The notes beneath the pieces were generated by a model. That model did not search any database. It saw nothing but the letters and a program-made list of their open reading frames with translations, and was not told the origin of the DNA. From assembly GCA_913054375.1 (NCBI GenBank), contig CAJXIQ010000002.1, positions 1 through 56,151 of the forward strand: a stretch of 56,151 bases of DNA, read 5' to 3'. The translations under genes were made by a program, and so were the position numbers. Numbering within the stretch: the first letter of the stretch is position 1; each line of letters opens with the position of its first letter. Below, in pieces: positions 9,034-38,010 of the stretch. The DNA comes from an uncultured Bacteroidota bacterium (GTDB taxonomy: Bacteria > Bacteroidota > Bacteroidia > NS11-12g > UBA9320).

Positions 9034-12000
9034 ATGAAAAAAAACATTACAACACTTAAATTCAGCTTTAACGCCCTAACAAAGGGTATCATGCTGCTTG
9101 CAGGTTACATTCTGCTCTCTTTTGGTTCATACGCTCAGTACCCCGTAGCGATACATTCCAACCAGTTTGGTTATGTATCATGCGCCGAATCTGCGATAGC
9201 ATTGGTGCAAGTAGAAGATGACAAAGGGAATATTGTCTTTACAAAAACAGATGATTGTAATGGACCGACAACCGTATTTGGTACTACTGCTAATCCAGTA
9301 TTTACACTTTCTGCAGGATCCAGTTATACTATACGTATTAATACAGTGGGTAGAACACCAGTATCTTCTTTTTTTGATACAAGGTCAACTGGAGCCATTT
9401 ATCTTGATTATAATAACGATTTTGACTTTACTGATGCAGGAGAATATATAACTACAGGACAGACAGGACAGGATATTCCAGGAGCTATAGGCAATAATAC
9501 TTATCCTCCTGCCCCTGCAACTTCAAGAGCAAAAACCTTCACTGTACCATGTACCGCTGTTGGTGGAATCACACGTTTACGTGTCCGTACATCTGACTTT
9601 TCGGGTGTTAGTGCTGCCACTTCATCCAGTCGATTTACTGATGGCGAAACAGAAGATTTTGTAATAAACATTGCAAAACCAGCTTCAGTAACTAGCGCAT
9701 TCTTTATACCAGACACTGCTTTTACTGGAACTTTGGTGAACATAACTAACTCCAATCAAAACGGTTATCTATCTCACGAATGGACTATCGACGGGACAAA
9801 AACTTCTACAGTTAATACAGGTTACGCATTTTCTCCTGCAGGCACATACGATGTAAAACTTAAAAGCACCAACTGTCTTGGAACCGATTCTACTACGAAA
9901 AGTATTGTGATTGTCGATCCTACGGCACCTGCCGTTTCAGATTTTGTTTCAGATAAAAACGTTGTCGAACTATATGAACCTGTAAGTTTAATCGATTTAA
10001 GTACCAACGGCCCTACCTATTGGAATTGGGTTATTAGCAATGGTGTAGACACCATAGATGGTGACGATGACCCTTCTCTTAGAGGAGGTAATCCACGCAT
10101 CAACCAAAACCCTATTATATACACTTCAAATGGGAATAGTACAGTAGGTCTAGGTGTATGGACTGTTACACTTACTGCATCTAACGCTATCAACGGTTCT
10201 GCACCAGAAACAAAGATTGGATACATAACTGTACAACGCTCCTCGTATAACATGGGTGCAGCTACTGCTCTTCCTGCAGGTGTCATCACTATACCAAGTG
10301 GTGAGCTATTTGACAAAGGTGGGCCGACTGGCAACTACAGCTCTCCAGATTACAACGAAGCTCTTATTGCTCCGTGTGGTGCTCAAAGCGTAACACTAGA
10401 GTTTACTCAATTTGAAGTTCGTGCAAATGCAACACTCAAAATATATGACGGCTTGAATGCTCTTGCTACTCCTTTACACACGGGTAACGGATACACACTG
10501 GGTAACGAACCTACTGGACCGATTACAGCTTCATCTGGAGCTATGTACCTTCTTTGGACGACAAGAGCAGGTGTTAATACCGTTGGGTTTGCTGCTAATT
10601 GGTCTTCTGTGGATGGTGTAGTAGGCGCTACTCCTGTAGCTGGTTTTACATTGCCTAATACGACTTTATATAACACTGTTCCTGTATCATTTAAAAACAC
10701 TTCTTTAAATGCCGGTGGTAATACTGCCCTTGAGTGGACACTTACTGGACCAGAGAATTTCACATCTAACTTAACCGATTTTGATTATACATTCCTCTCC
10801 AATGGTAGCTACACACTCTCTCTTAAAGCAATTACTTGTGACAACCAAGTAAGTACATCAACACAGTCTTTTACTGTAGTTTCTCCTACGACGCCTACCA
10901 ATCTTGATTTTGTCGCTGACAATCAAAGACCTAATATAGGTGATGCTGTTACGATAACAGCTACTAGCGATAAAGCAAATAACTGGGAATGGTCTATTTT
11001 CCCTTTAACGGGATGGGAAGCAGATACACGTCCAAATACATCCAATGTACGATCATTTACATTTAACCAACCAGGGGTTTATACGGTACAGTGTAGAGCG
11101 TATAACTCTACGAACGAATTGGCCTCTGAAGCTACGGTTGTGAAAACGTCTTACATCCTTGTAGTTGAATATTGTACTCCTATTATCGGGGTTACTACTT
11201 CCACTGATATAGGCATAAGCTACTTTAGTTTAACTGACCCTCTATCTGGTACGTCTTTCGAAAACAGCTCAGCTACAGGTGTAGAATATACAGACTACTC
11301 TGACCTTGGTGCTATTGACCTTAATTTTGGAGGTACGTATACCTTCGAAGTTAAAAGACCTAGTAACGTAAATGATATGTCTCGCAAAATGTGGATCGAT
11401 TGGAACGTAGATGGTGACTTTGATGATGCCGGTGAAGAAGTAGCTGCTGAAGCTGTAGGTAACAACATGTCTTGGACCAGTTCTTTCACTGTTCCAGATG
11501 CTAATACTGCTTTTGAAGCAACTACCAGAGCTCGTATTGGAGTATCGTATGATACAGATCCTAACGAAGCGTGTGGGGCTTCTTCTAACCCAAATGCTAA
11601 CCGTATTGGTGAGTTTGAGGACTACCTTATTCGTGTAGTAAACGATGGAGATGAGCCTGTAATCACTCTAATAGATGCAGATACTGTATTTATAGAGCAA
11701 AATGCCACTCCACCTTACGTAGCCCTAGGTGCTACAGCACTAGATCCTTCTCAAGGCGACATTTCGGGTAATATTACAATTACTTCTGACCTGGATCAGT
11801 CTCTTGCTGGGGTATACTACGAGGTATACAATGTTATGGATGCATCAGGAAATCCTGCAGAACCCGTTACGCGTGTAATATATGTTGTAGCTGACCAAAC
11901 GGCTCCAGCAATTACAATCAATGGAGCAAACGATGTTACTATTGAAGTTGGTACTCCTTATGTAGATCTTGGAGCTACTGCTCTAGATAATACTGAAGGC

Positions 12001-31241: not shown

Positions 31242-32120
31242 ATGAACAAATTACTTTTTACCCTACTATTTTTTAGTGCTTTTAGTCTAACTACCAATGC
31301 CCAGACTTGGGACGATTCTGGTGATAGTTGGGACGATTCCGGAGATAGTTGGGATGATTCTGGATCTGATGACAAATCAGCTGGAGATTATGACTATGAT
31401 CAAGGTTCTGGCGGTACAACTAGTGACTACGCAGATACTTCTGGCGGTGACGATTGGGGTAATGACGATTGGGGCGATGATGATGGTGGATTCGACTTCG
31501 GAGGAGGAGGAGGAGACTATGTTCGTTCCACTCGACCAAAGACAGAGGCTAGGCCTTATGAGCGCTTCACTGGAATGCCTTACGATAGCGCTTCACAATT
31601 GGTTACCTATTTAGAAATCGTAGACGTAATTGTGCCAGAAAAATTTTTAGACCTAGGAGGTGACGACTACTCTGTATATGATTCGCTCTACACAAGAGCG
31701 CTGACGTGGATGCAAACCGAGTTTGGTAAACGAGAAGCGAAGCAAATGATAGATGCTGCAGGAGAAGACACAGAAGGAAAAGAGGGGTCTACTATAAAGG
31801 CATACGTTACTATACCGCTAAAAGTGCAAGAAAGTAAGTACCAAACAAAAGATGCTGGAACCCTTGAGTTTGATATGGAACTTCGTTTCAAAGACGAGCG
31901 TTACAGATATAAATTTGAAAACTTCGTACATGTGCAATCCAATACATCAGGAGAAAAAGATATGGATGTAACCTACATGGAATACTACTTAAGCGCTAAA
32001 AAGAACATTCGTGGCAACGACAAAATTCTAATCGCTTGCAATACTCAAGTAACTAAATTAATTGAAGGTCTGAAGGCAACGTGTCAAGCTACTCCTTTCA
32101 TCGATGATGACGACTGGTAG
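31242..32120 (+). CDS. Secreted protein with acidic W/D/G-rich repeat region and DUF4468-like C-terminal domain
   Basis: Signal peptide ending TNAQ; WDDSGDS x3; DDWGNDDWGDDDGGFDFGGGGGD. The C-terminal globular part ends in FIDDDDW. Confidence 0.55.
   Translation: MNKLLFTLLFFSAFSLTTNAQTWDDSGDSWDDSGDSWDDSGSDDKSAGDYDYDQGSGGTTSDYADTSGGDDWGNDDWGDDDGGFDFGGGGGDYVRSTRPKTEARPYERFTGMPYDSASQLVTYLEIVDVIVPEKFLDLGGDDYSVYDSLYTRALTWMQTEFGKREAKQMIDAAGEDTEGKEGSTIKAYVTIPLKVQESKYQTKDAGTLEFDMELRFKDERYRYKFENFVHVQSNTSGEKDMDVTYMEYYLSAKKNIRGNDKILIACNTQVTKLIEGLKATCQATPFIDDDDW
31308..31370 (+). repeat. Three tandem 21-bp units encoding WDDSGDS/WDDSGDS/WDDSGSD
   Basis: tgggacgattctggtgatagt / tgggacgattccggagatagt / tgggatgattctggatctgat. 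Confidence 0.9.
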
Positions 32121-32142
32121 CACTTGATAAAAAACAAAACTT

Positions 32143-32176
32143 AAAAATCCTTTGCGCTTTGCGTAAGGGATTTTTT
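32143..32176 (+). terminator. Rho-independent terminator
   Basis: The A-run plus cctttgcg ... cgtaaggg stem is followed by tttttt. Confidence 0.7.
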
Positions 32177-32371
32177 GTTATACGTACATTTGAAGAATCA
32201 ATGCTTTCGGCACTTTGTATATTTTGTACACTCCTCTTTACTTTGCGCTGTACACCGCATCGTTTGCTAATGCTGCATCTTACCTGCATCAACAGCCTTG
32301 TGCCAGAACAACCCATACGTGACAAGTGGAGCAAGTTTGGCAAATCAACACCCACAAAAAGATACGTATAA

Positions 32372-33259
32372 ATGGCAAGCTATAAACAAGAGTGGATTGA
32401 TGCTCTGAAACATTTGCGATTGCACTTTTCTTTGCTACTAATGCCAGTATTCTTGTTTGCTGTATCTCAGTTGCCTGAGGTAAACTACACGATTGCTGCC
32501 CTTGTTTTCATTATTCTTCATGTACTCACCTACCCCGCCAGTAATATTTTTAATAGTTACTACGACCGAGATATTGGCAGTGTTGGAGGATTGAAAAATC
32601 CACCTCCCCCAAATAAGAAAATGCTTTGGTTAGCAAACACCCTTGATATCTCAGCTCTACTATTTTCACTCAGCATAAGCAATACATTTGCCTTGTTAAT
32701 CTCTGTATACATTTCCGCTTCAAGGCTCTATAGCTATAGACCTATCCGACTAAAACAATATCCAATTATCGGATTTTTCGTAATTTTTATCTTTCAAGGT
32801 GCTTTTACTTTTTACCTTTCTAGTTATGGCTGTCTACATCGAGATGTATCTCCATCACGCCTATTTGGACTCCACTTAAGTGAAATCTTGCCCATGGTAG
32901 CTTCATCATTCCAAATAGGAGCCATATACCCACTTACCCAGATTTACCAACATAAAAGTGACTTAGCAGATGGCGTAACTACCTTGAGTTGCAAACTAGG
33001 CTACAGAGGTACATTTATATTCGCAGGAATTATGTTTAGCATTGCTGCGCTATTCTACTACCTCCACTTTTCCAAAACAGATATTACTTCCTTTTATCTC
33101 TTCACCGCAATACAAGTACCCATCATAGGGTATTTCGTTTATTGGGCGAGTAAGGTTTGGAAAGATATCACGTATGCGGACTATAAGCACACGATGTATA
33201 TGAATGTAATTGCTGCCGTAGTATTCAATTTATTCTTCCTTTACTTAATTTTAACATAG
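32372..33259 (+). CDS. UbiA-superfamily aromatic prenyltransferase
   Basis: Polytopic membrane protein with Asp-rich motifs NSYYDRDIG and KSDLADG. Confidence 0.8.
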   Translation: MASYKQEWIDALKHLRLHFSLLLMPVFLFAVSQLPEVNYTIAALVFIILHVLTYPASNIFNSYYDRDIGSVGGLKNPPPPNKKMLWLANTLDISALLFSLSISNTFALLISVYISASRLYSYRPIRLKQYPIIGFFVIFIFQGAFTFYLSSYGCLHRDVSPSRLFGLHLSEILPMVASSFQIGAIYPLTQIYQHKSDLADGVTTLSCKLGYRGTFIFAGIMFSIAALFYYLHFSKTDITSFYLFTAIQVPIIGYFVYWASKVWKDITYADYKHTMYMNVIAAVVFNLFFLYLILT

Positions 33260-33262
33260 GTC

Positions 33263-34282
33263 TTGAGCTACATACAACATATAGGTACAGCTGCACCCAA
33301 AAACTCGCTTACTCAAGATGAGTTTGCTGAAATTTATTCTTCTCTGACGAATGACTCCGACATTAAGCGTAAAATAAAATTCTTGACTGCCCGCAGCGAG
33401 ATAGAGAAAAGGCATTGTGTTGAACCTCATATTAAAAAACTTATCCCGTTATCGCTGGAGGAAAAGCTAGCAACATACCACACCAACGCTATAGCACTTG
33501 CAGAGGAAGCGGTACGGGACAATCCTGCGTTCCAAAAACACAAAGACAATATCACTGATGTCATATTCATAAGCTGCACAGGTATGCAAGCTCCAGGGGT
33601 GGAAATAGATCTGATACATAAGTTAGGTCTTTCTTCTACTACACACAGATACAACATAAATTTCATGGGTTGCTATGCTGCACTTACTGGATTGCGTATA
33701 GCCAAGGATATAACTGCCACAGCTGGAAGGACTGTGTTGATGATTTCTGTGGAACTGTGTACGCTCCACTTTCAGCACCAGTTTGCAGACGACTACTTAC
33801 TGTCCAATTCCTTGTTTGCAGATGGAGCAGCCGCCGTAATTATAACGTCAGAGAAACACAACGCTACATATCAGTTAATCGACTTTGAATCTCGCCTATT
33901 GCCTACATCCAAAGATGAAATGAGTTGGAAAATATCTCCATCTGGATTTCTGATGACGCTTTCTGGTACCGTTCCCAATACGATCAGCAAATCATTAAAC
34001 CAAAAACGATTGTTTGACAAAAATCCGCAGCAAGTTGGGTGGGCCATACACCCCGGAGGTAAGCAAATTATCGATGGCATTAAGACCACTTTGAATATAG
34101 ATGAATCCGAAGTAACAGCTTCTAGAAAAATACTATCCGAACAGGGGAATATGTCTTCTGCTACTATCCTTTTTGTGCTTAAAGAAATGCTCAATAACAG
34201 GCCGTCTGCCAAGAAAGAGTTCATTGCGTGTGCTTTTGGACCTGGGCTTACTTTAGAATCTGCCCTACTCGCATATGTTTAA
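33263..34282 (+). CDS. Type III polyketide synthase (chalcone/stilbene synthase family)
   Basis: Catalytic Cys (FISCTGMQAPG), His (WAIHPGGKQI) and Asn (GNMSSATILF), plus AFGPGLT. TTG start 3 nt after the UbiA stop. Confidence 0.9.
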   Translation: MSYIQHIGTAAPKNSLTQDEFAEIYSSLTNDSDIKRKIKFLTARSEIEKRHCVEPHIKKLIPLSLEEKLATYHTNAIALAEEAVRDNPAFQKHKDNITDVIFISCTGMQAPGVEIDLIHKLGLSSTTHRYNINFMGCYAALTGLRIAKDITATAGRTVLMISVELCTLHFQHQFADDYLLSNSLFADGAAAVIITSEKHNATYQLIDFESRLLPTSKDEMSWKISPSGFLMTLSGTVPNTISKSLNQKRLFDKNPQQVGWAIHPGGKQIIDGIKTTLNIDESEVTASRKILSEQGNMSSATILFVLKEMLNNRPSAKKEFIACAFGPGLTLESALLAYV

Positions 34283-34949
34283 CCACCGCTCCCATACCAA
34301 AGAGTTTTTAGACGGTGCAGTAGGCCAAAAAGACTTGGAGCTTAACTTGAAAGAGCTCCACACAATAAACACGTTATTGGGCGGCTATGCCATATCCACC
34401 AATGCATTAAAAACACTTGATTTAGAAAATAAAACGCTAGTAGATATAGGTTCTGGTGGTGGCGATATGCTCGACGTTATTCGTCAATGGACCCAAAAAA
34501 AAGGCATTAACTTGAATCTATACGGTGTGGACCTCAAAGAAGAGTGTAGCCAGTATGCCCAATCTCACTTGCCCAATACACTTACTTTCATACATGACGA
34601 CTACCGCAATATAGAAAACCACATAAAGCAAATCGACTACCTACACGCATGCCTATTTACACACCACCTGTCCGATGACCAAATCATAGATTTAATCCGC
34701 TTTGCCATTGAACGAAAAATAACGTTAATCATTAATGACCTAGAACGTAATTTTATCGCTTATTACGCCATTATGCTATTGACTCGTCTTTTCTCCAAGT
34801 CGTATCTGGTAAAAAATGACGCACCTTTGAGTGTGCTTCGTGGGTTTAAGAAAAAAGAATGGCTTACTTACCTAAAAAAAGCAGGTGCTACCCATTACAC
34901 TGTTAAATGGAAATGGGCATTTCGCCATCAAATAATTGTATATGGATAA
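34275..34949 (+). CDS. SAM-dependent methyltransferase
   Basis: Motif I LVDIGSGGGDM. 8-nt overlap with the PKS gene. Confidence 0.8.
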   Translation: MFNHRSHTKEFLDGAVGQKDLELNLKELHTINTLLGGYAISTNALKTLDLENKTLVDIGSGGGDMLDVIRQWTQKKGINLNLYGVDLKEECSQYAQSHLPNTLTFIHDDYRNIENHIKQIDYLHACLFTHHLSDDQIIDLIRFAIERKITLIINDLERNFIAYYAIMLLTRLFSKSYLVKNDAPLSVLRGFKKKEWLTYLKKAGATHYTVKWKWAFRHQIIVYG

Positions 34950-36054
34950 GTACGATGTAGGCATAATCGGTGCAGGAATAGCCGGCAGTTGCTTGGCTAT
35001 TCTACTAGCAGAAGAGGGGAAATCGGTAGTGGTCTTTGAGAAAGAGGATTATCCAAGCCATAAAGTATGCGGCGAGTTTATCTCTTTGGAATCTTACGCA
35101 TTTTTTAAAAGTCTAGGCTTGCCACTCGATGATTGGAACCTTCCAATTATTAAAAACCTACAACTCACTTCTCAAAAGGGGGGAGAGCTTAATACCTCCT
35201 TAAAAACAGGTGGGTTTGGGTTGAGCAGGTACAAACTAGACCACGCACTTGCTGAGCAAATGAAAAAATCTGGAGTACATTTTCATCCTAAAACTAAGGT
35301 AACCGAAGTGCAAAACGAAATGATCTCCACTGCCAATGGAACATATAAAACGGACTTAATTATAGGCTCACACGGCAAGTACTCCCCAGGGTACTTAAAA
35401 AGACCCAAAACTGCCGCCAAGAGGAAATACATCGGCGTAAAGTATCATATCAAAGGAGATTTCAAAGAGAACCTCATCTCTCTCCACTCATTTGACGGTG
35501 GATACTGCGGAATAAGTAAAATAGAAGACAATCAATATTGTTTGTGCTACTTGGCAGACGCCTCAAAACTCAAATATCACAACAACAATATCCGTGCATT
35601 CGAAAAAAACGTACTATTCAAAAATAAAAAATTGAAGGAAGTATACTCCAAAGCTGAATTTATGTGGGCCAAACCATTGGTAATTAGCAACATAAAATTC
35701 AACAAGCAGCAGCTATACAATGAACACATGCTTTTTGTAGGAGATGCTGCTGGGAGCATAAGTCCGCTTAGTGGCAACGGCATGAGCATAGCTGCCCGAA
35801 GCGCACTAGTCTTGTCTCAACTAATTCTTGAGGAAGAAAACTTTGCTCAACTCAGAACGCGATACAACAAAGAATGGGACCTCCACTTTGGTGGACGAGT
35901 GAATAAAGCCGAACTACTAAACAAACTAATGCTTAATCCTACTGCCCATCATTTAGTATTAAAAGCATTAAATGCTTTCTCTCCGTTACGTCATAAAGTG
36001 GTCAATGATATGCAAGGTGATTCTTTTGTAAGGAATTTTCGTGTAATTCGTTAA
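34936..36054 (+). CDS. FAD-dependent oxidoreductase/monooxygenase (geranylgeranyl-reductase-like fold)
   Basis: GIIGAGIAGSCLA dinucleotide fold and GDAAGSISPLSGNGM. Overlaps the methyltransferase stop. Confidence 0.8.
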   Translation: MYMDKYDVGIIGAGIAGSCLAILLAEEGKSVVVFEKEDYPSHKVCGEFISLESYAFFKSLGLPLDDWNLPIIKNLQLTSQKGGELNTSLKTGGFGLSRYKLDHALAEQMKKSGVHFHPKTKVTEVQNEMISTANGTYKTDLIIGSHGKYSPGYLKRPKTAAKRKYIGVKYHIKGDFKENLISLHSFDGGYCGISKIEDNQYCLCYLADASKLKYHNNNIRAFEKNVLFKNKKLKEVYSKAEFMWAKPLVISNIKFNKQQLYNEHMLFVGDAAGSISPLSGNGMSIAARSALVLSQLILEEENFAQLRTRYNKEWDLHFGGRVNKAELLNKLMLNPTAHHLVLKALNAFSPLRHKVVNDMQGDSFVRNFRVIR

Positions 36055-36224
36055 CTCCGACTGGTGTAACACTTAAATATAAAGATGTGAGTATTCCTTC
36101 ATTCCCTCTCCAGCATTATTGTATGCGTAGAGGGAATGATAGTATCAAATCTATTCGATTTCGATGACACACTCCCCTACTAGGTTGGTATAGAATGCTT
36201 TTAAAACCACTGATGACAATACAT

Positions 36225-36956
36225 ATGAACAAACTAATCCTAATAACACTGCTATCCATTCCAAGCTTATTCGGCTACGGACAATCCAATTTCAAACAAA
36301 AGCACGATTTTGGACTAGCATTGAGTTATGCTCCAAATGAATTTGCTGGAGCTCTTTCGTGGAAACAAATGCATGGCATTACTTCCAAAGCTAAATTTAA
36401 ACTTGGATACGGCCTCAGGTTTAACGCTTACGCTGCTAGTAATCGCACGTATATAACGGCTCCAGCCTATCTTACAAGCGGTGAAAAAGGACCCCAGGTA
36501 CTGTTTATCGAGAATATAGAAGAAAATATTGACACCTTTAGTGTAGCAAAAGCACAACACAATTCGCTCAATGCAGTCATCTATTTGGAGTATGATATCT
36601 CTGATAAATGGGGTGTTGGATTCAATATAGATGCTGCTGGCATAGCTTTTGGTAAAGAGGTGTTAGGCACACCTATAAGCAGCAATAAACCAGTGAACAC
36701 CGTAAATCAACTCTCTGCAAAACCCACGGCATATAATGTGCTGCTCATAAGCGATAATGATATCGGAATGCTCAACAGTGAACTATACGTAAAATATAAT
36801 GTGACCACAAAGCTGACTGTTAATGCAGGTTTTACCTTTTTGTTTACCGAATACACCACCACTGAAAAAATAACCTACAATGACAATAACGATCGTTTCA
36901 GAAATAAATCACTCCTTGGAATGATCAGCATCAATTACAAACCATTTAAAAAGTAA
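36225..36956 (+). CDS. Putative outer-membrane beta-barrel protein
   Basis: Signal peptide MNKLILITLLSIPSLFGYGQ, alternating beta-strand pattern, and C-terminal ISINYKPFKK. Confidence 0.5.
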   Translation: MNKLILITLLSIPSLFGYGQSNFKQKHDFGLALSYAPNEFAGALSWKQMHGITSKAKFKLGYGLRFNAYAASNRTYITAPAYLTSGEKGPQVLFIENIEENIDTFSVAKAQHNSLNAVIYLEYDISDKWGVGFNIDAAGIAFGKEVLGTPISSNKPVNTVNQLSAKPTAYNVLLISDNDIGMLNSELYVKYNVTTKLTVNAGFTFLFTEYTTTEKITYNDNNDRFRNKSLLGMISINYKPFKK

Positions 36957-36960
36957 CACA

Positions 36961-37491
36961 ATGAATAAAATCAACATACTCATTGCATTCTCATTAATGA
37001 CCATCGCTGCGATTGCCTCAACAAATTGGTCTCCTACTACCGGTTCAGTAAAGTTTCACATCAAAAATGCCGGCATCACCGTAGATGGTAAATTCTCTGG
37101 TATTAAGGCATCCATCCAGTTTGACAGAAATGACCTTGCCAATTCTCGCATCTATGCCTCTGTGAAAGCAACTACTGTAAATACCGGTATTGATAAACGA
37201 GATGAGCACCTGCGTAAAGCAGAATACTTTGACGTTGCTAAATACCCAAAGATAGAAATGCGTTCTACTTCTATTGCCAAATCTAAAGACGAATTTGTCG
37301 GGCAATTTGATGTAACGATAAAGGACAAGACCAAAAACATTGAAGTTCCATTTTCATTCACAAACCACGGAGAAACCGGAACTTTCAACGGTAAAATAAA
37401 ACTAGATAGACTCGATTTTAATGTTGGAGAAAGCGGATTTATCCTGAGTGATGACGTCCGAATAGACATCGTCCTCAATGTTAAGAAATAA
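36961..37491 (+). CDS. YceI-like (polyisoprenoid-binding family) periplasmic protein
   Basis: Signal peptide; VKFHIKNAGITVDGKF and TVNTGIDKRDEHLRKAEYFDVAKYP are typical of YceI. Confidence 0.8.
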   Translation: MNKINILIAFSLMTIAAIASTNWSPTTGSVKFHIKNAGITVDGKFSGIKASIQFDRNDLANSRIYASVKATTVNTGIDKRDEHLRKAEYFDVAKYPKIEMRSTSIAKSKDEFVGQFDVTIKDKTKNIEVPFSFTNHGETGTFNGKIKLDRLDFNVGESGFILSDDVRIDIVLNVKK

Positions 37492-37581
37492 GACTTTATA
37501 TGAATTGGTTAGGTAAAGCAGTTTAGTTTAGGAGGGCAACTCTTACATAGTTGCCTTTTTTGTTTCAATCTTATCGTATCT

Positions 37582-38010
37582 CTACTCCTCAAATAGCTCA
37601 ACATTTTTTTTCTGCATCACTAAGTCTGTAAACTTTCCTTTATATTTTGTAGCTCGTACAATATGGTTGTCAATCCAGTGATAGTTACCACCACGTGGTT
37701 TACCGTAGAGCACCCCATGGTGCTTGAAACCGTGCTTTCTGAGCCAATTGTCCGTGACTTCTTTGTGTTCAACCGTTCTAGATGTAAAAAAAGTAATTAT
37801 ATGTCCTTGGTCGTACCAGCGATTTAGTGTTTCTAAAGCATCTGGAAAAGGCTCACAGGTAGCCATTCTCTCGGGCTCTTCATTGGGCACGTCTTCAGTT
37901 ACAGTTCCATCTATATCGATCATATAGTTTTTAATATGAATGGGTAGTTGTGGACTTATCAGATTTCCATTTTTGTCAAAAAGTTCATCCAGTTTTTTTT
38001 CATCTTTCAT
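37582..38010 (-). CDS. HAD-superfamily hydrolase/phosphatase (small)
   Basis: MIDIDGTVTED (DxDGT motif I) and FFTSR (motif II). Confidence 0.6.
   Translation of the reverse strand: MKDEKKLDELFDKNGNLISPQLPIHIKNYMIDIDGTVTEDVPNEEPERMATCEPFPDALETLNRWYDQGHIITFFTSRTVEHKEVTDNWLRKHGFKHHGVLYGKPRGGNYHWIDNHIVRATKYKGKFTDLVMQKKNVELFEE

Follow-up and report, generated by a model that had tools for sequence, protein, structure and literature searches.

The agqABCD gene cluster was reportedly described by Awakawa et al. in 2011, together with an assignment of roles to AgqB, AgqC and AgqD. Found in Actinoplanes missouriensis, the cluster encodes a type III polyketide synthase (PKS), an oxygenase, a methyltransferase and a UbiA-like prenyltransferase, and its products are 6-alkyl-4-O-dihydrogeranyl-2-methoxyhydroquinones (PMC3569393, PMC4044012, PMC7692728). 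Operons composed of a PKS, a methyltransferase and a hydroxylase, namely srsABC of Streptomyces griseus and pkqABC of Mycobacterium smegmatis and Streptomyces sp. MNU77, lead to alkylquinones, the alkylresorcinol being turned into an alkyl-benzoquinone (PMC9927152). The Mtr, Fdo and PKS proteins of the planctomycete G. maris yielded methylated alkylresorcinols in C. glutamicum, and a pentacistronic operon of 'Saltatorellus ferox' encodes a lipoprotein, a lipid/isoprenoid-binding protein, two methyltransferases and a type III PKS (PMC10896814). The initial annotation of the locus considered here regarded it as uncharacterised for this phylum, and our literature search indeed found no paper on a Bacteroidota operon of this type.

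The window is the whole stretch of 56,151 nucleotides that was analysed, from an uncultured Bacteroidota bacterium. It contains, at 32372-37491 on the + strand, six genes in the same orientation, which are listed here with the sequence elements around them.

32143..32180, + strand: 5' hairpin and T-run, AAAAATCCTTTGCGC-TTT-GCGTAAGGGATTTTTTG (RNAfold of 32121-32371)
32185..32192, + strand: TACATTTG, match to the -7 promoter element (Bacteroidota consensus TAnnTTTG), 180 nt ahead of the UbiA gene
32372-33259, + strand: UbiA-superfamily prenyltransferase, 295 aa
33263-34282, + strand: type III PKS, 339 aa, TTG start, N-terminus matching homologues
34275-34949, + strand: class I SAM-dependent methyltransferase, 224 aa
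34936-36054, + strand: FAD-dependent oxidoreductase (flavoprotein), 372 aa
36099..36139, + strand: 11-bp perfect inverted repeat, TCATTCCCTCT...AGAGGGAATGA, in the gap between the flavoprotein and barrel genes
36195-36956, + strand: outer-membrane beta-barrel ORF, 253 aa, likely start 36225
36961-37491, + strand: YceI-family protein, 176 aa
37530..37562, + strand: 3' hairpin, GGAGGGCAACT-CTTACAT-AGTTGCCTTTTTTG (RNAfold of 37492-37581)

In gene order the spacing consists of a 3-nt gap, an 8-nt overlap, a 14-nt overlap, a 140-nt gap and a 4-nt gap, and the coordinates agree with the earlier description of the first four genes as translationally packed. The placement of the barrel gene 140 nt downstream holds for the opening of the ORF (36195); however, the barrel protein most likely begins at Met11 (36225), where all its homologues begin, which extends the gap to 170 nt. 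The 5' hairpin stands after an upstream DUF4468 gene and is likely an intrinsic terminator that sets the 5' boundary of the operon, although it was not among the results of the consensus scan. Similarly, the 3' hairpin, common to the operon and a convergent HAD-like gene, is likely an intrinsic terminator closing the six-gene unit. Terminator-like hairpins with a T-run were found on both sides of the six genes and none inside, and no Rfam element was found. The inverted repeat at 36099..36139 lacks a T-run and is not conserved in relatives, and the gap that contains it has no + strand match to the -7 promoter consensus. Motifs of the TAnnTTTG type are not enriched in the window (57 found versus 64 expected), and TACATTTG is consequently a weak candidate for the promoter.

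The PKS carries the Chal_sti_synt_N (2e-30) and Chal_sti_synt_C (5e-23) domains. Its full Cys-His-Asn triad, pointed out initially, is invariant (Cys137/His263/Asn296) in an alignment of 14 sequences spanning 40-83% identity. Over readable stretches it shares 35-40% identity with the R. baltica and G. maris enzymes whose activity as alkylresorcinol synthases is experimentally proven, and Trp222, a cavity position, aligns with the Trp of these enzymes; this Trp (ArsB W281) is described as the resorcinol determinant and is also conserved in the srsABC and pkqABC systems (PMC9927152). The alignments suggest that the PKS is probably an alkylresorcinol synthase. The methyltransferase has class I methyltransferase domains, is PRK06202-like and, by analogy, represents a putative ring-methylation step. 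A profile of its 50 Bacteroidota orthologues matches G. maris Mtr colinearly over 2-87 and 108-230 (30 and 38 bits), and the flavoprotein is colinear with G. maris Fdo in a profile comparison. The latter contains FAD Rossmann/FAD_binding_3 domains and the motifs GxGxxG, HxVC45GE (invariant) and GDxAGxIxPLxGNGM, and the halogenase motif WxWxIP is absent from it.

The UbiA protein matches PF01040 at 54.7 bits (cut-off 34.2), and its AlphaFold2 model (pLDDT 93, pTM 0.90) retrieves only UbiA-fold structures as top Foldseek matches (TM 0.6-0.7), so that the predicted structure confirms the fold of a UbiA-superfamily intramembrane prenyltransferase. Twelve residues are invariant in 49 orthologues: N58, N61, D65, D67, S117, Y120, R126, K128, Q190, Q193, H194 and D197. 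They define the motifs N61xxxD65xD67 (NxxxDxD) and Q193xxxD197 in place of the canonical NxxxDxxxD and DxxxD, which the 49 sequences lack; D200 is kept in only 35 of them. Neither phmmer nor the family profile recovered a solved UbiA structure. With non-canonical motifs and no match of this kind, the prenyl donor and acceptor cannot be predicted.

Compared by family rather than by protein sequence, agqABCD resembles the locus most closely, all four enzyme families being present in a single compact cluster. Its host is a Gram-positive actinomycete, and neither an outer-membrane protein nor a YceI protein accompanies it; in the window the UbiA gene comes first, and its product falls in a subfamily whose Asp motifs are non-canonical. 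Because agqABCD already combines these families, the enzyme quartet and hence the biosynthetic core are of a known kind. The precedent named initially, srsABC, is sound in the light of the alkylquinone operon literature (PMC9927152) and of the colinearity with the planctomycete proteins, although agqABCD, the closest one, was missed. The srs, pkq and hid operons have three enzyme families in common with the locus. Genes 2-4 follow the PKS-methyltransferase-oxidoreductase order of srsABC and pkqABC (the last two likened by description), which lack a prenyltransferase and envelope genes. The hidABC genes of picocyanobacteria (hierridins) and the planctomycete mtr-fdo-t3pks operon include a homologous methyltransferase and flavoprotein but have the reverse order (methyltransferase-flavoprotein-PKS) and no UbiA. 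What is new here is the distribution in Bacteroidota, the divergent UbiA subfamily (NxxxDxD) and the link to the envelope; this widespread version with its envelope partners is unstudied, though the enzyme set is known from actinomycetes.

The four-gene order recurs across Bacteroidota, with a patchy distribution within families. Among neighbouring gene families, the PKS was counted at 76 loci, the methyltransferase at 50, UbiA at 49 and the flavoprotein at 44, and the next family at only 11. The synteny of UbiA and PKS that had been singled out for checking was found in relatives: UbiA directly adjoins the PKS in 47 of 65 testable loci, all four enzyme genes occur together in 39 of the 65, and PKS, methyltransferase and flavoprotein follow UbiA in all four subfamily members examined from the UbiA side. 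The loci counted are not phylogenetically independent; the association of the four families exceeds chance.

The barrel protein has no Pfam or NCBIfam match and 703 homologues. Its AlphaFold2 model (pLDDT 81, pTM 0.73) begins with a signal helix, continues with 10 antiparallel strands and ends in ...PF, with Foldseek matches to outer-membrane barrels only; the alignment contains the conserved motifs FKxGYGxRF, TAPAxLTS, GFNIDAxG, SDNDIGxLNSE, FTEYTT and NDRFRNK. As modelled, it is an outer-membrane beta-barrel with a signal peptide and 10 strands, and its Bacteroidota family is uncharacterised. The YceI protein (PF04264 at 3e-31) carries a signal peptide but lacks a lipobox Cys; among solved structures it is closest to E. 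coli YceI 1y0g (1e-12), HP1286-like 3hpe and TT1927b 1wub. Members of known structure accommodate polyisoprenoid or fatty ligands inside a lipocalin-like barrel, and by sequence the protein belongs to this secreted, lipocalin-like, polyisoprenoid-binding family. The two genes form a tight pair: at 44 of the 64 loci that could be tested, YceI comes directly after the barrel. Linkage of the pair to the PKS operon was also observed in relatives: of 24 barrel loci flanked by 5 kb or more on each side, 8 have genes of the operon in the flanks, the linkage takes at least six different architectures, and YceI alone follows the flavoprotein without the barrel in loci L007, L033, L046, L079 and L168. 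The recurrent linkage agrees with the initial view of the two as the operon's own handling proteins, but they are not private to it. Elsewhere the pair extends to a larger DoxX/Omp85/DinB/TANGO2 module, of which it is a reduced form, the module being separately distributed. Since YceI and barrel are absent within 8 kb in about 59 of 65 PKS loci, PKS genes are absent near 16 of the 24 long-flank barrel loci and the barrel has been lost from a close relative whose flanks are identical, the pathway can do without the envelope pair.

Tight coupling and flanking terminator-like hairpins are the basis for taking the six genes as one operon for a membrane phenolic lipid, an explanation that as a whole we consider slightly better than even. 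The type III PKS would condense a fatty-acyl starter and malonyl-CoA into a cyclised 5-alkylresorcinol, which hydroxylation by the flavoprotein and methylation by the methyltransferase would convert to an alkyl-methoxy-hydroquinone or benzoquinone, by analogy with srs, pkq, hid and agq. Ring hydroxylation and O-methylation are assumed here, because no activity of the homologous planctomycete flavoprotein was detected in the heterologous host and the planctomycete methylation resembled C-methylation (PMC10896814). The intramembrane UbiA-fold enzyme would add an isoprenoid chain, on C or O. The secreted YceI lipocalin may then bind the two-tailed redox-active lipid in the periplasm and hand it to the adjacent 10-strand barrel, or the lipid may be inserted through the barrel. 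The analysis establishes the anatomy of the genes, the folds, the catalytic residues, the conservation of the operon and the repeated linkage of barrel and YceI to the enzymes. We infer in this scheme the substrate, the order of steps, the prenylation site, the YceI ligand and the direction of transport, as well as the identity and physiological role of the product; on balance we lean narrowly towards a (hydro)quinone lipid derived from an alkylresorcinol by methylation, hydroxylation and prenylation and handled by periplasmic and outer-membrane proteins.

It is very improbable that UbiA is a MenA-like housekeeping prenyltransferase of quinone or lipid synthesis that is only positionally associated with the PKS. 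Some automatic annotations do name the family 1,4-dihydroxy-2-naphthoate octaprenyltransferase or 4-hydroxybenzoate polyprenyltransferase, but the protein reaches 17 bits where the MenA cut-off is 346 and falls far below the MenA and UbiA equivalog models, which together with its own invariant motif set places it, on profile scores, in a divergent subfamily apart from them; translational coupling to the PKS through the 3-nt gap and the adjacency in relatives described above also argue against a positional accident. The flavoprotein could instead be of the geranylgeranyl-reductase type and saturate the prenyl chain added by UbiA, leaving a prenylated, methylated alkylresorcinol and no quinone. 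The best NCBIfam score is to that family (TIGR02032, 104 bits), yet it lies under the cut-off of 158.8; an invariant KVC45GE resembles the reductase Cys motif, yet a YxWxFP-type motif is missing, with GYCGIS instead. A reduced geranyl group is present in the agq product (PMC3569393), but the same flavoprotein family occurs without UbiA, both in the FAD-PKS-methyltransferase operons of Hymenobacter and in the planctomycete/cyanobacterial hid-type operons (PMC10896814), and in Natronoflexus its slot is occupied by an unrelated, classical aromatic-ring hydroxylase (FAD_binding_3+Rng_hyd_C). In view of the UbiA-less operons and this replacement, the flavoprotein is most likely a ring hydroxylase, and a role as prenyl reductase appears quite improbable.

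The linkage of barrel and YceI to the enzymes, at one-third within 10 kb, far exceeds that of unrelated genes, and recurs in rearranged architectures and with YceI alone. A similar pairing exists in 'S. ferox', where one transcript covers the type III PKS and a secreted protein that is a putative isoprenoid binder (YceI-like), likened by description, in an unrelated lineage with no UbiA, no flavoprotein and other methyltransferase types (PMC10896814). These observations, and a flavoprotein-barrel gap free of a terminator-like T-run and of a promoter match, make it unlikely, though a serious contender, that the first four genes alone are the functional unit and the pair an independent envelope system, e.g., one that takes up or sequesters hydrophobic or isoprenoid compounds from outside. 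That alternative draws on the barrel loci without PKS genes and the barrel-less relative, on Aurantibacillus, which has the full envelope module and no PKS within 7 kb, on the hairpin in the 140-170 nt gap, and on some automated names and weak Foldseek matches that point to FadL/TodX-type importers. It is rather doubtful that the polyketide quinone remains in the cytoplasmic membrane and works there as an alternative respiratory carrier of higher potential, like the PkQ of mycobacteria and Streptomyces, with barrel and YceI not exporting the quinone but belonging to a redox or stress function of the periplasm that employs it or guards against it. The operon has no link to respiratory complexes within the window, a two-tailed quinone with prenyl and alkyl chains is without precedent as a respiratory carrier, and patchiness within families is unusual for a core respiratory cofactor; on the other side stand the description of Bacteroidota, to our knowledge, as menaquinone-only and the company of the pair in other genomes (DoxX, AhpC/redoxin, nitroreductase and DinB-like genes, all of redox or thiol type). 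Quinones from pkqABC-type operons, on the same side, can take the place of menaquinone in hypoxia and in spores (PMC9927152).

The YceI protein of the window is alike in domain and secreted location to E. coli YceI, T. thermophilus TT1927b and the Campylobacter/Helicobacter homologues, and differs from these members in its genetic linkage to one particular biosynthetic operon as well as to a barrel of the outer membrane.

Six consecutive ORFs on the + strand were found where the initial annotation had placed them. From one gene to the next there is a gap of 3 nt, an overlap of 8 and then of 14 nt, and gaps of 140 and then 4 nt. The first four genes (UbiA, PKS, MT and FAD; hereafter the quartet) are followed by a pair of putative envelope genes (barrel and YceI). 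The ORFs and the elements surrounding them are as follows, hairpins having been predicted with RNAfold:

32143-32180: strong hairpin with T-run, directly 3' of the upstream DUF4468 gene
32185: match to TAnnTTTG, weak promoter evidence as the window shows no enrichment of this motif
32372-33259, + strand: UbiA prenyltransferase ORF, 295 aa
33263-34282, + strand: type III polyketide synthase (PKS) ORF, 339 aa, TTG start
34275-34949, + strand: SAM methyltransferase (MT) ORF, 224 aa
34936-36054, + strand: flavoprotein (FAD) ORF, 372 aa
36099-36139: inverted repeat in the FAD-barrel gap, perfect over 11 bp, with a loop of 19 nt and no T-run
36195-36956, + strand: barrel ORF, 253 aa
36961-37491, + strand: YceI ORF, 176 aa
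37530-37562: strong hairpin with T-run, directly 3' of the YceI gene

The simplest reading of this layout is that a single six-gene transcript would extend from UbiA to YceI. All barrel homologues in the alignment begin at the position of Met11 of the window protein; therefore the real start is probably at 36225, which makes the FAD-barrel gap 170 nt long. This gap contains no + strand match to TAnnTTTG, and a blastn search with its inverted repeat found no counterpart in relatives. Scanning for sigma-70 promoter and terminator consensus sequences yielded counts no higher than expected from shuffled sequences, and no Rfam family matched in the segment 31800-37800. A MAG of a "Bacteroidia bacterium" carries near-identical UbiA (MDG2455300.1) and YceI (MDG2455305.1) proteins, and the span of their numbering fits six adjacent genes. 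Pfam searches of the window genes detected UbiA, chalcone/stilbene synthase N- and C-terminal, class I methyltransferase, FAD Rossmann/FAD_binding_3 and YceI domains. None of the six proteins reached an NCBIfam equivalog cut-off and, therefore, none belongs to a named, curated enzyme family.

Conservation of the quartet was investigated by a pattern scan in which each GTDB species was represented by one genome. At least 600 stretches matched, and 597 of those listed proved to be relatives of the PKS. The 80 best of these are almost all from Bacteroidota, including Dyadobacter, Spirosoma, Arcicella, Hymenobacter, Chitinophagaceae, Niastella, Saprospiraceae and Balneolaceae. Among the 65 PKS loci with enough flanking sequence, UbiA lies directly upstream of PKS on the same strand in 37 and divergently in 10, is located elsewhere in the locus in 2, and is absent from 16; the complete quartet is present in 39. 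Cultivable carriers of the four-gene operon are known in Dyadobacter and Niastella. The synteny on which the initial annotation had staked its interpretation is thus found in relatives, with UbiA adjoining PKS in 47 of the 65 loci and, viewed from the UbiA side, PKS-MT-FAD following all four subfamily members looked up. Unsupervised clustering of neighbouring ORFs recovered the same four families (PKS in 76 loci, MT in 50, UbiA in 49 and FAD in 44), the next family being found in 11. Additional candidate members in Chitinophagaceae loci were rejected as lineage synteny; the genes downstream in these loci encode CoA-binding, DUF458-like, EngB GTPase, UbiE/MenG, MarR/PadR-type regulator and TonB-like proteins. 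The same PKS family also occurs in FAD-PKS-MT arrangements without UbiA in Hymenobacter (loci L055, L056, L070 and L073; L-numbers denote the loci of other genomes and metagenomes compared with the window) and alone between unrelated conserved genes in Arcicella/Flectobacillus (L011, L013, L016, L031 and L040), and thus the quartet is modular within the phylum.

The PKS matches Chal_sti_synt_N with 106 bits and Chal_sti_synt_C with 82 bits (Pfam cut-off 27), and phmmer matched many type III PKSs in the PDB, down to 6e-45. The full Cys-His-Asn triad noted in the initial annotation is confirmed as C137, H263 and N296, which are invariant in a homologue alignment reaching down to 40% identity. 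Over the readable stretches only, the protein is 35-40% identical to the enzymes of R. baltica and G. maris, whose proven products are pentadecyl- and heptadecylresorcinols (PMC10896814). Trp281 of ArsB determines the choice between resorcinol and pyrone, that is, aldol rather than lactone closure (PMC9927152). The invariant W222 of the window PKS falls in the same alignment column as the Trp found in the proven enzymes from R. baltica, G. maris and "S. ferox", and may be the counterpart of ArsB W281, an assignment made by way of these three enzymes. Compared with L002-L080, the PKS clade of the window (339 aa) is missing a loop of approximately 17-20 residues (alignment columns 78-95). The window PKS is only ~40% identical to the mainstream Bacteroidota PKSs, whereas UbiA and MT of the window are 45-58% identical to their mainstream counterparts; divergence has thus been faster in the PKS than in these two proteins.

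UbiA scores 54.7 bits against PF01040 (gathering score 34.2), and neither its single sequence nor its family profile matched any PDB sequence. An AlphaFold2 model based on an orthologue alignment assembled from database hits has a pLDDT of 93 and a pTM of 0.90. The 14 best Foldseek matches of this model are all of the UbiA fold (TM 0.60-0.72), namely DGGGP synthase, UbiA homologues from A. fulgidus and A. pernix, and UBIAD1. The residues N58, N61, D65, D67, S117, Y120, R126, K128, Q190, Q193, H194 and D197 are invariant among 49 orthologues, in which the canonical NxxxDxxxD and DxxxD motifs are absent. The subfamily has instead the variants N61-S-Y-x-D65-x-D67 and Q193-H-x-x-D197-x-x-D200, the latter with D200 in 35 of the 49 sequences, and three invariant Asp residues are retained. 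Assignment as MenA was rejected (17 bits versus a cut-off of 346), and the best score against the MenA, UbiA and chlorophyll synthase NCBIfam equivalogs was 30 bits, with cut-offs of 212-346. Judged by its NxxxDxD and QHxxD motifs and by these scores, the protein is assigned to a distinct subfamily that is neither MenA nor UbiA; such a divergent subfamily would add to the catalytic repertoire known for intramembrane prenyltransferases.

The two remaining enzymes were compared with the methyltransferase Mtr and the flavoprotein Fdo of the planctomycete G. maris by searching family HMMs, built from 50 MT and 44 FAD Bacteroidota orthologues, against three-frame translations. The G. maris sequences, taken from a paper supplement, are OCR-damaged and contain frameshifts, and plain tblastn gave motif-level matches only. 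The MT profile matched Mtr colinearly with 30 + 38 bits and the FAD profile matched Fdo colinearly with 8 + 21 + 8 bits plus weaker pieces, the latter being modest evidence. Based on these colinear matches, MT and FAD belong to the tailoring families of the planctomycetes and of hid, the picocyanobacterial hierridin operon.

The FAD protein contains GxGxxG, an invariant HxVC45GE and GDxAGxIxPLxGNGM motifs, and, among solved structures, flavin halogenases come closest to it, with a flavin monooxygenase and a geranylgeranyl reductase from an archaeon also among the nearest. A function as flavin halogenase was rejected: WxWxIP is absent and its position is occupied by GYCGIS, invariant across the family. 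The score against the geranylgeranyl reductase family TIGR02032, 103.8 bits, is below the cut-off of 158.8. We favour a role as ring hydroxylase for this putative tailoring enzyme because FAD-PKS-MT operons lacking UbiA (the Hymenobacter loci and also hid-type operons) retain the FAD gene, and because the FAD slot of the UbiA-PKS-MT operon of Natronoflexus pectinivorans (L165, 12178-13776) holds an unrelated 532-aa FAD_binding_3 + Rng_hyd_C aromatic-ring hydroxylase, which is a non-orthologous replacement. The planctomycete homologue of the flavoprotein was silent in C. glutamicum (PMC10896814).

The nearest known system to the operon is agqABCD of Actinoplanes missouriensis, in which, as in the window, a PKS, a flavin oxidoreductase, a methyltransferase and a UbiA-like protein are co-located, the comparison being one of enzyme families. 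Its products are 6-alkyl-4-O-dihydrogeranyl-2-methoxyhydroquinones (PMC3569393, PMC4044012, PMC7692728). A comparable UbiA-MT-dehydrogenase-PKS neighbourhood is present in Micromonospora, srsABC and pkqABC have the same PKS-MT-oxidoreductase order as the operon, and hidABC shares tailoring families with it. Given the agq, srs, pkq and hid precedents, the biosynthetic logic of the operon is already known and the locus is less surprising than the initial annotation had suggested. Our literature search turned up no work on either the Bacteroidota operon or the envelope module presented below. As far as the searches show, the Bacteroidota operon itself, the divergent UbiA subfamily, and the coupling to barrel/YceI and the wider module are undescribed.

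The YceI protein matches PF04264 (109 bits, 3e-31) as well as YceI structures in the PDB, and has an N-terminal hydrophobic signal, MNKINILIAFSLMTIAAIAS. The barrel family comprises ~700 database clusters without a Pfam domain, and its polar motifs GFNIDAxG, SDNDIGxLNSE, FTEYTT and NDRFRNK are unusually conserved; the C-terminus ...PF(K/N/R) is conserved. The AlphaFold2 model (pLDDT 81) consists of a signal peptide and 10 antiparallel strands forming a closed barrel, for which Foldseek returned only outer-membrane barrels, at TM values of at most 0.4 and without singling out a family.

Linkage of these two genes was counted in 80 metagenome loci found via the barrel protein. YceI is directly 3' of barrel in 44 of 64 testable loci, and genes of the PKS operon occur in the flanks of 8 of the 24 barrel loci with at least 5 kb on both sides. 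Several architectures besides that of the window link the envelope genes to PKS: an Omp85-like gene between FAD and barrel (L087, L095, L096), the full module following the operon (L084, L100, L102), PKS-MT downstream of TANGO2 (L123, L141), PKS-MT-FAD-UbiA upstream of DoxX...barrel (L162), barrel-YceI upstream of PKS (L036, Spirosoma terrae), and YceI alone after FAD (L007, L033, L046, L079). The relative GCA_018402155.1 (L168) shares with the window the neighbourhood of M1 peptidase, DUF4468, operon, YceI, HAD-like, EamA and MetRS genes, but the 400-nt AT-rich gap at 9667-10068 contains neither a barrel gene nor a remnant of one; the barrel was therefore gained or lost between close relatives. 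The YceI-PKS linkage proposed in the initial annotation thus occurs in relatives in several arrangements, including YceI alone after FAD and L168. Considering the varied architectures and the missing barrel of L168, we conclude that the association of the envelope pair with PKS is real but facultative, YceI being the more constant partner. A lipoprotein and an isoprenoid-binding protein are independently coupled to a type III PKS in a planctomycete-like organism (PMC10896814).

A wider and apparently undescribed module is conserved in Bacteroidota (L081 5179-10547, L082 4558-10570, L084 342-10016 and many of L085-L164). Assigned by Pfam, its families are DoxX-like, AhpC/redoxin, short Omp85-like (~368 aa), M48-like HExxH (~231 aa), barrel, YceI, DinB-like (~170 aa), TANGO2 (~242 aa) and ATP-grasp-like (~343 aa). 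Among the 44 loci of at least 8 kb, YceI is found in 39, DinB-like in 24 and TANGO2 in 23. None of the additional module genes lies within the 56-kb window, where Omp85, TANGO2, DinB-like, ATP-grasp-like, AhpC, DoxX and nitroreductase genes were sought. In Aurantibacillus circumpalustris, the module is not adjacent to PKS.

Phenolic lipids made by type III PKSs stiffen membranes and alter antibiotic tolerance, and polyketide quinones from type III PKSs carry respiratory electrons in actinobacteria. To our knowledge, nothing is known of such phenolic lipids in Bacteroidota, though the PKS family occurs in at least ~600 species genomes, and the solution of YceI structures has left the physiological role of that family open. 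The analysis itself establishes the folds and catalytic residues, the structure of the operon and the linkage counts, and the mechanism outlined here borrows its steps from characterised systems. By analogy with srs, pkq, hid and agq, the PKS would turn a fatty-acyl starter into an alkylresorcinol, ring hydroxylation and methylation (on O or C) would convert it to an alkyl-methoxy-(hydro)quinone, and the UbiA-fold enzyme would prenylate the lipid in the membrane. The periplasmic YceI might then take up the predicted lipid and hand it to, or pass it through, the barrel.

In a further reading, the UbiA/PKS operon and barrel-YceI (elsewhere enlarged by the module) would together make up a single Bacteroidota envelope system, so far undescribed: a quinol synthesised at the inner membrane would be carried across the periplasm by YceI and then be placed in the outer membrane or leave the cell through it. 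We regard this as unlikely. A prenylated polyketide quinol at the outer membrane would be a redox-active lipid, namely an antioxidant, electron shuttle or defence compound, and the proposal, if true, would provide the first defined physiological ligand and pathway for YceI proteins and bacterial TANGO2 homologues. Alternatively, the envelope pair may import something or serve periplasmic redox chemistry instead of exporting the product. If the product is only a minor secondary metabolite, the finding shrinks to a well-conserved, ordinary biosynthetic cluster. A prenylated lipid genetically tied to a secreted YceI and a barrel would make a new class of envelope lipids of Gram-negative bacteria tractable, and the operon product gives the YceI family a concrete candidate for its ligand, the point on which the locus is above all a good, testable lead.

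Two neighbouring genes deserve mention. At 31242-32120 (+ strand), a secreted 292-aa protein has extremely acidic repeats (DSGDSWDD three times, then a GDD/W-rich segment) followed by a DUF4468 TBP-like domain. In all close relatives (L001, L085, L087, L089, L091, L092, L096, L104 and L168), the DUF4468 gene immediately precedes UbiA, from which the terminator-like hairpin of the window sets it apart; its product may be a member of the system or its position may reflect lineage synteny only. At 37582-38010 (- strand), convergent with YceI, lies a gene for a 142-aa HAD-type protein with lipin-type LNS2 as its best Pfam match (1e-8), which could act as a phosphatase on lipid or prenyl phosphates; the gene is kept at the same position in L168.
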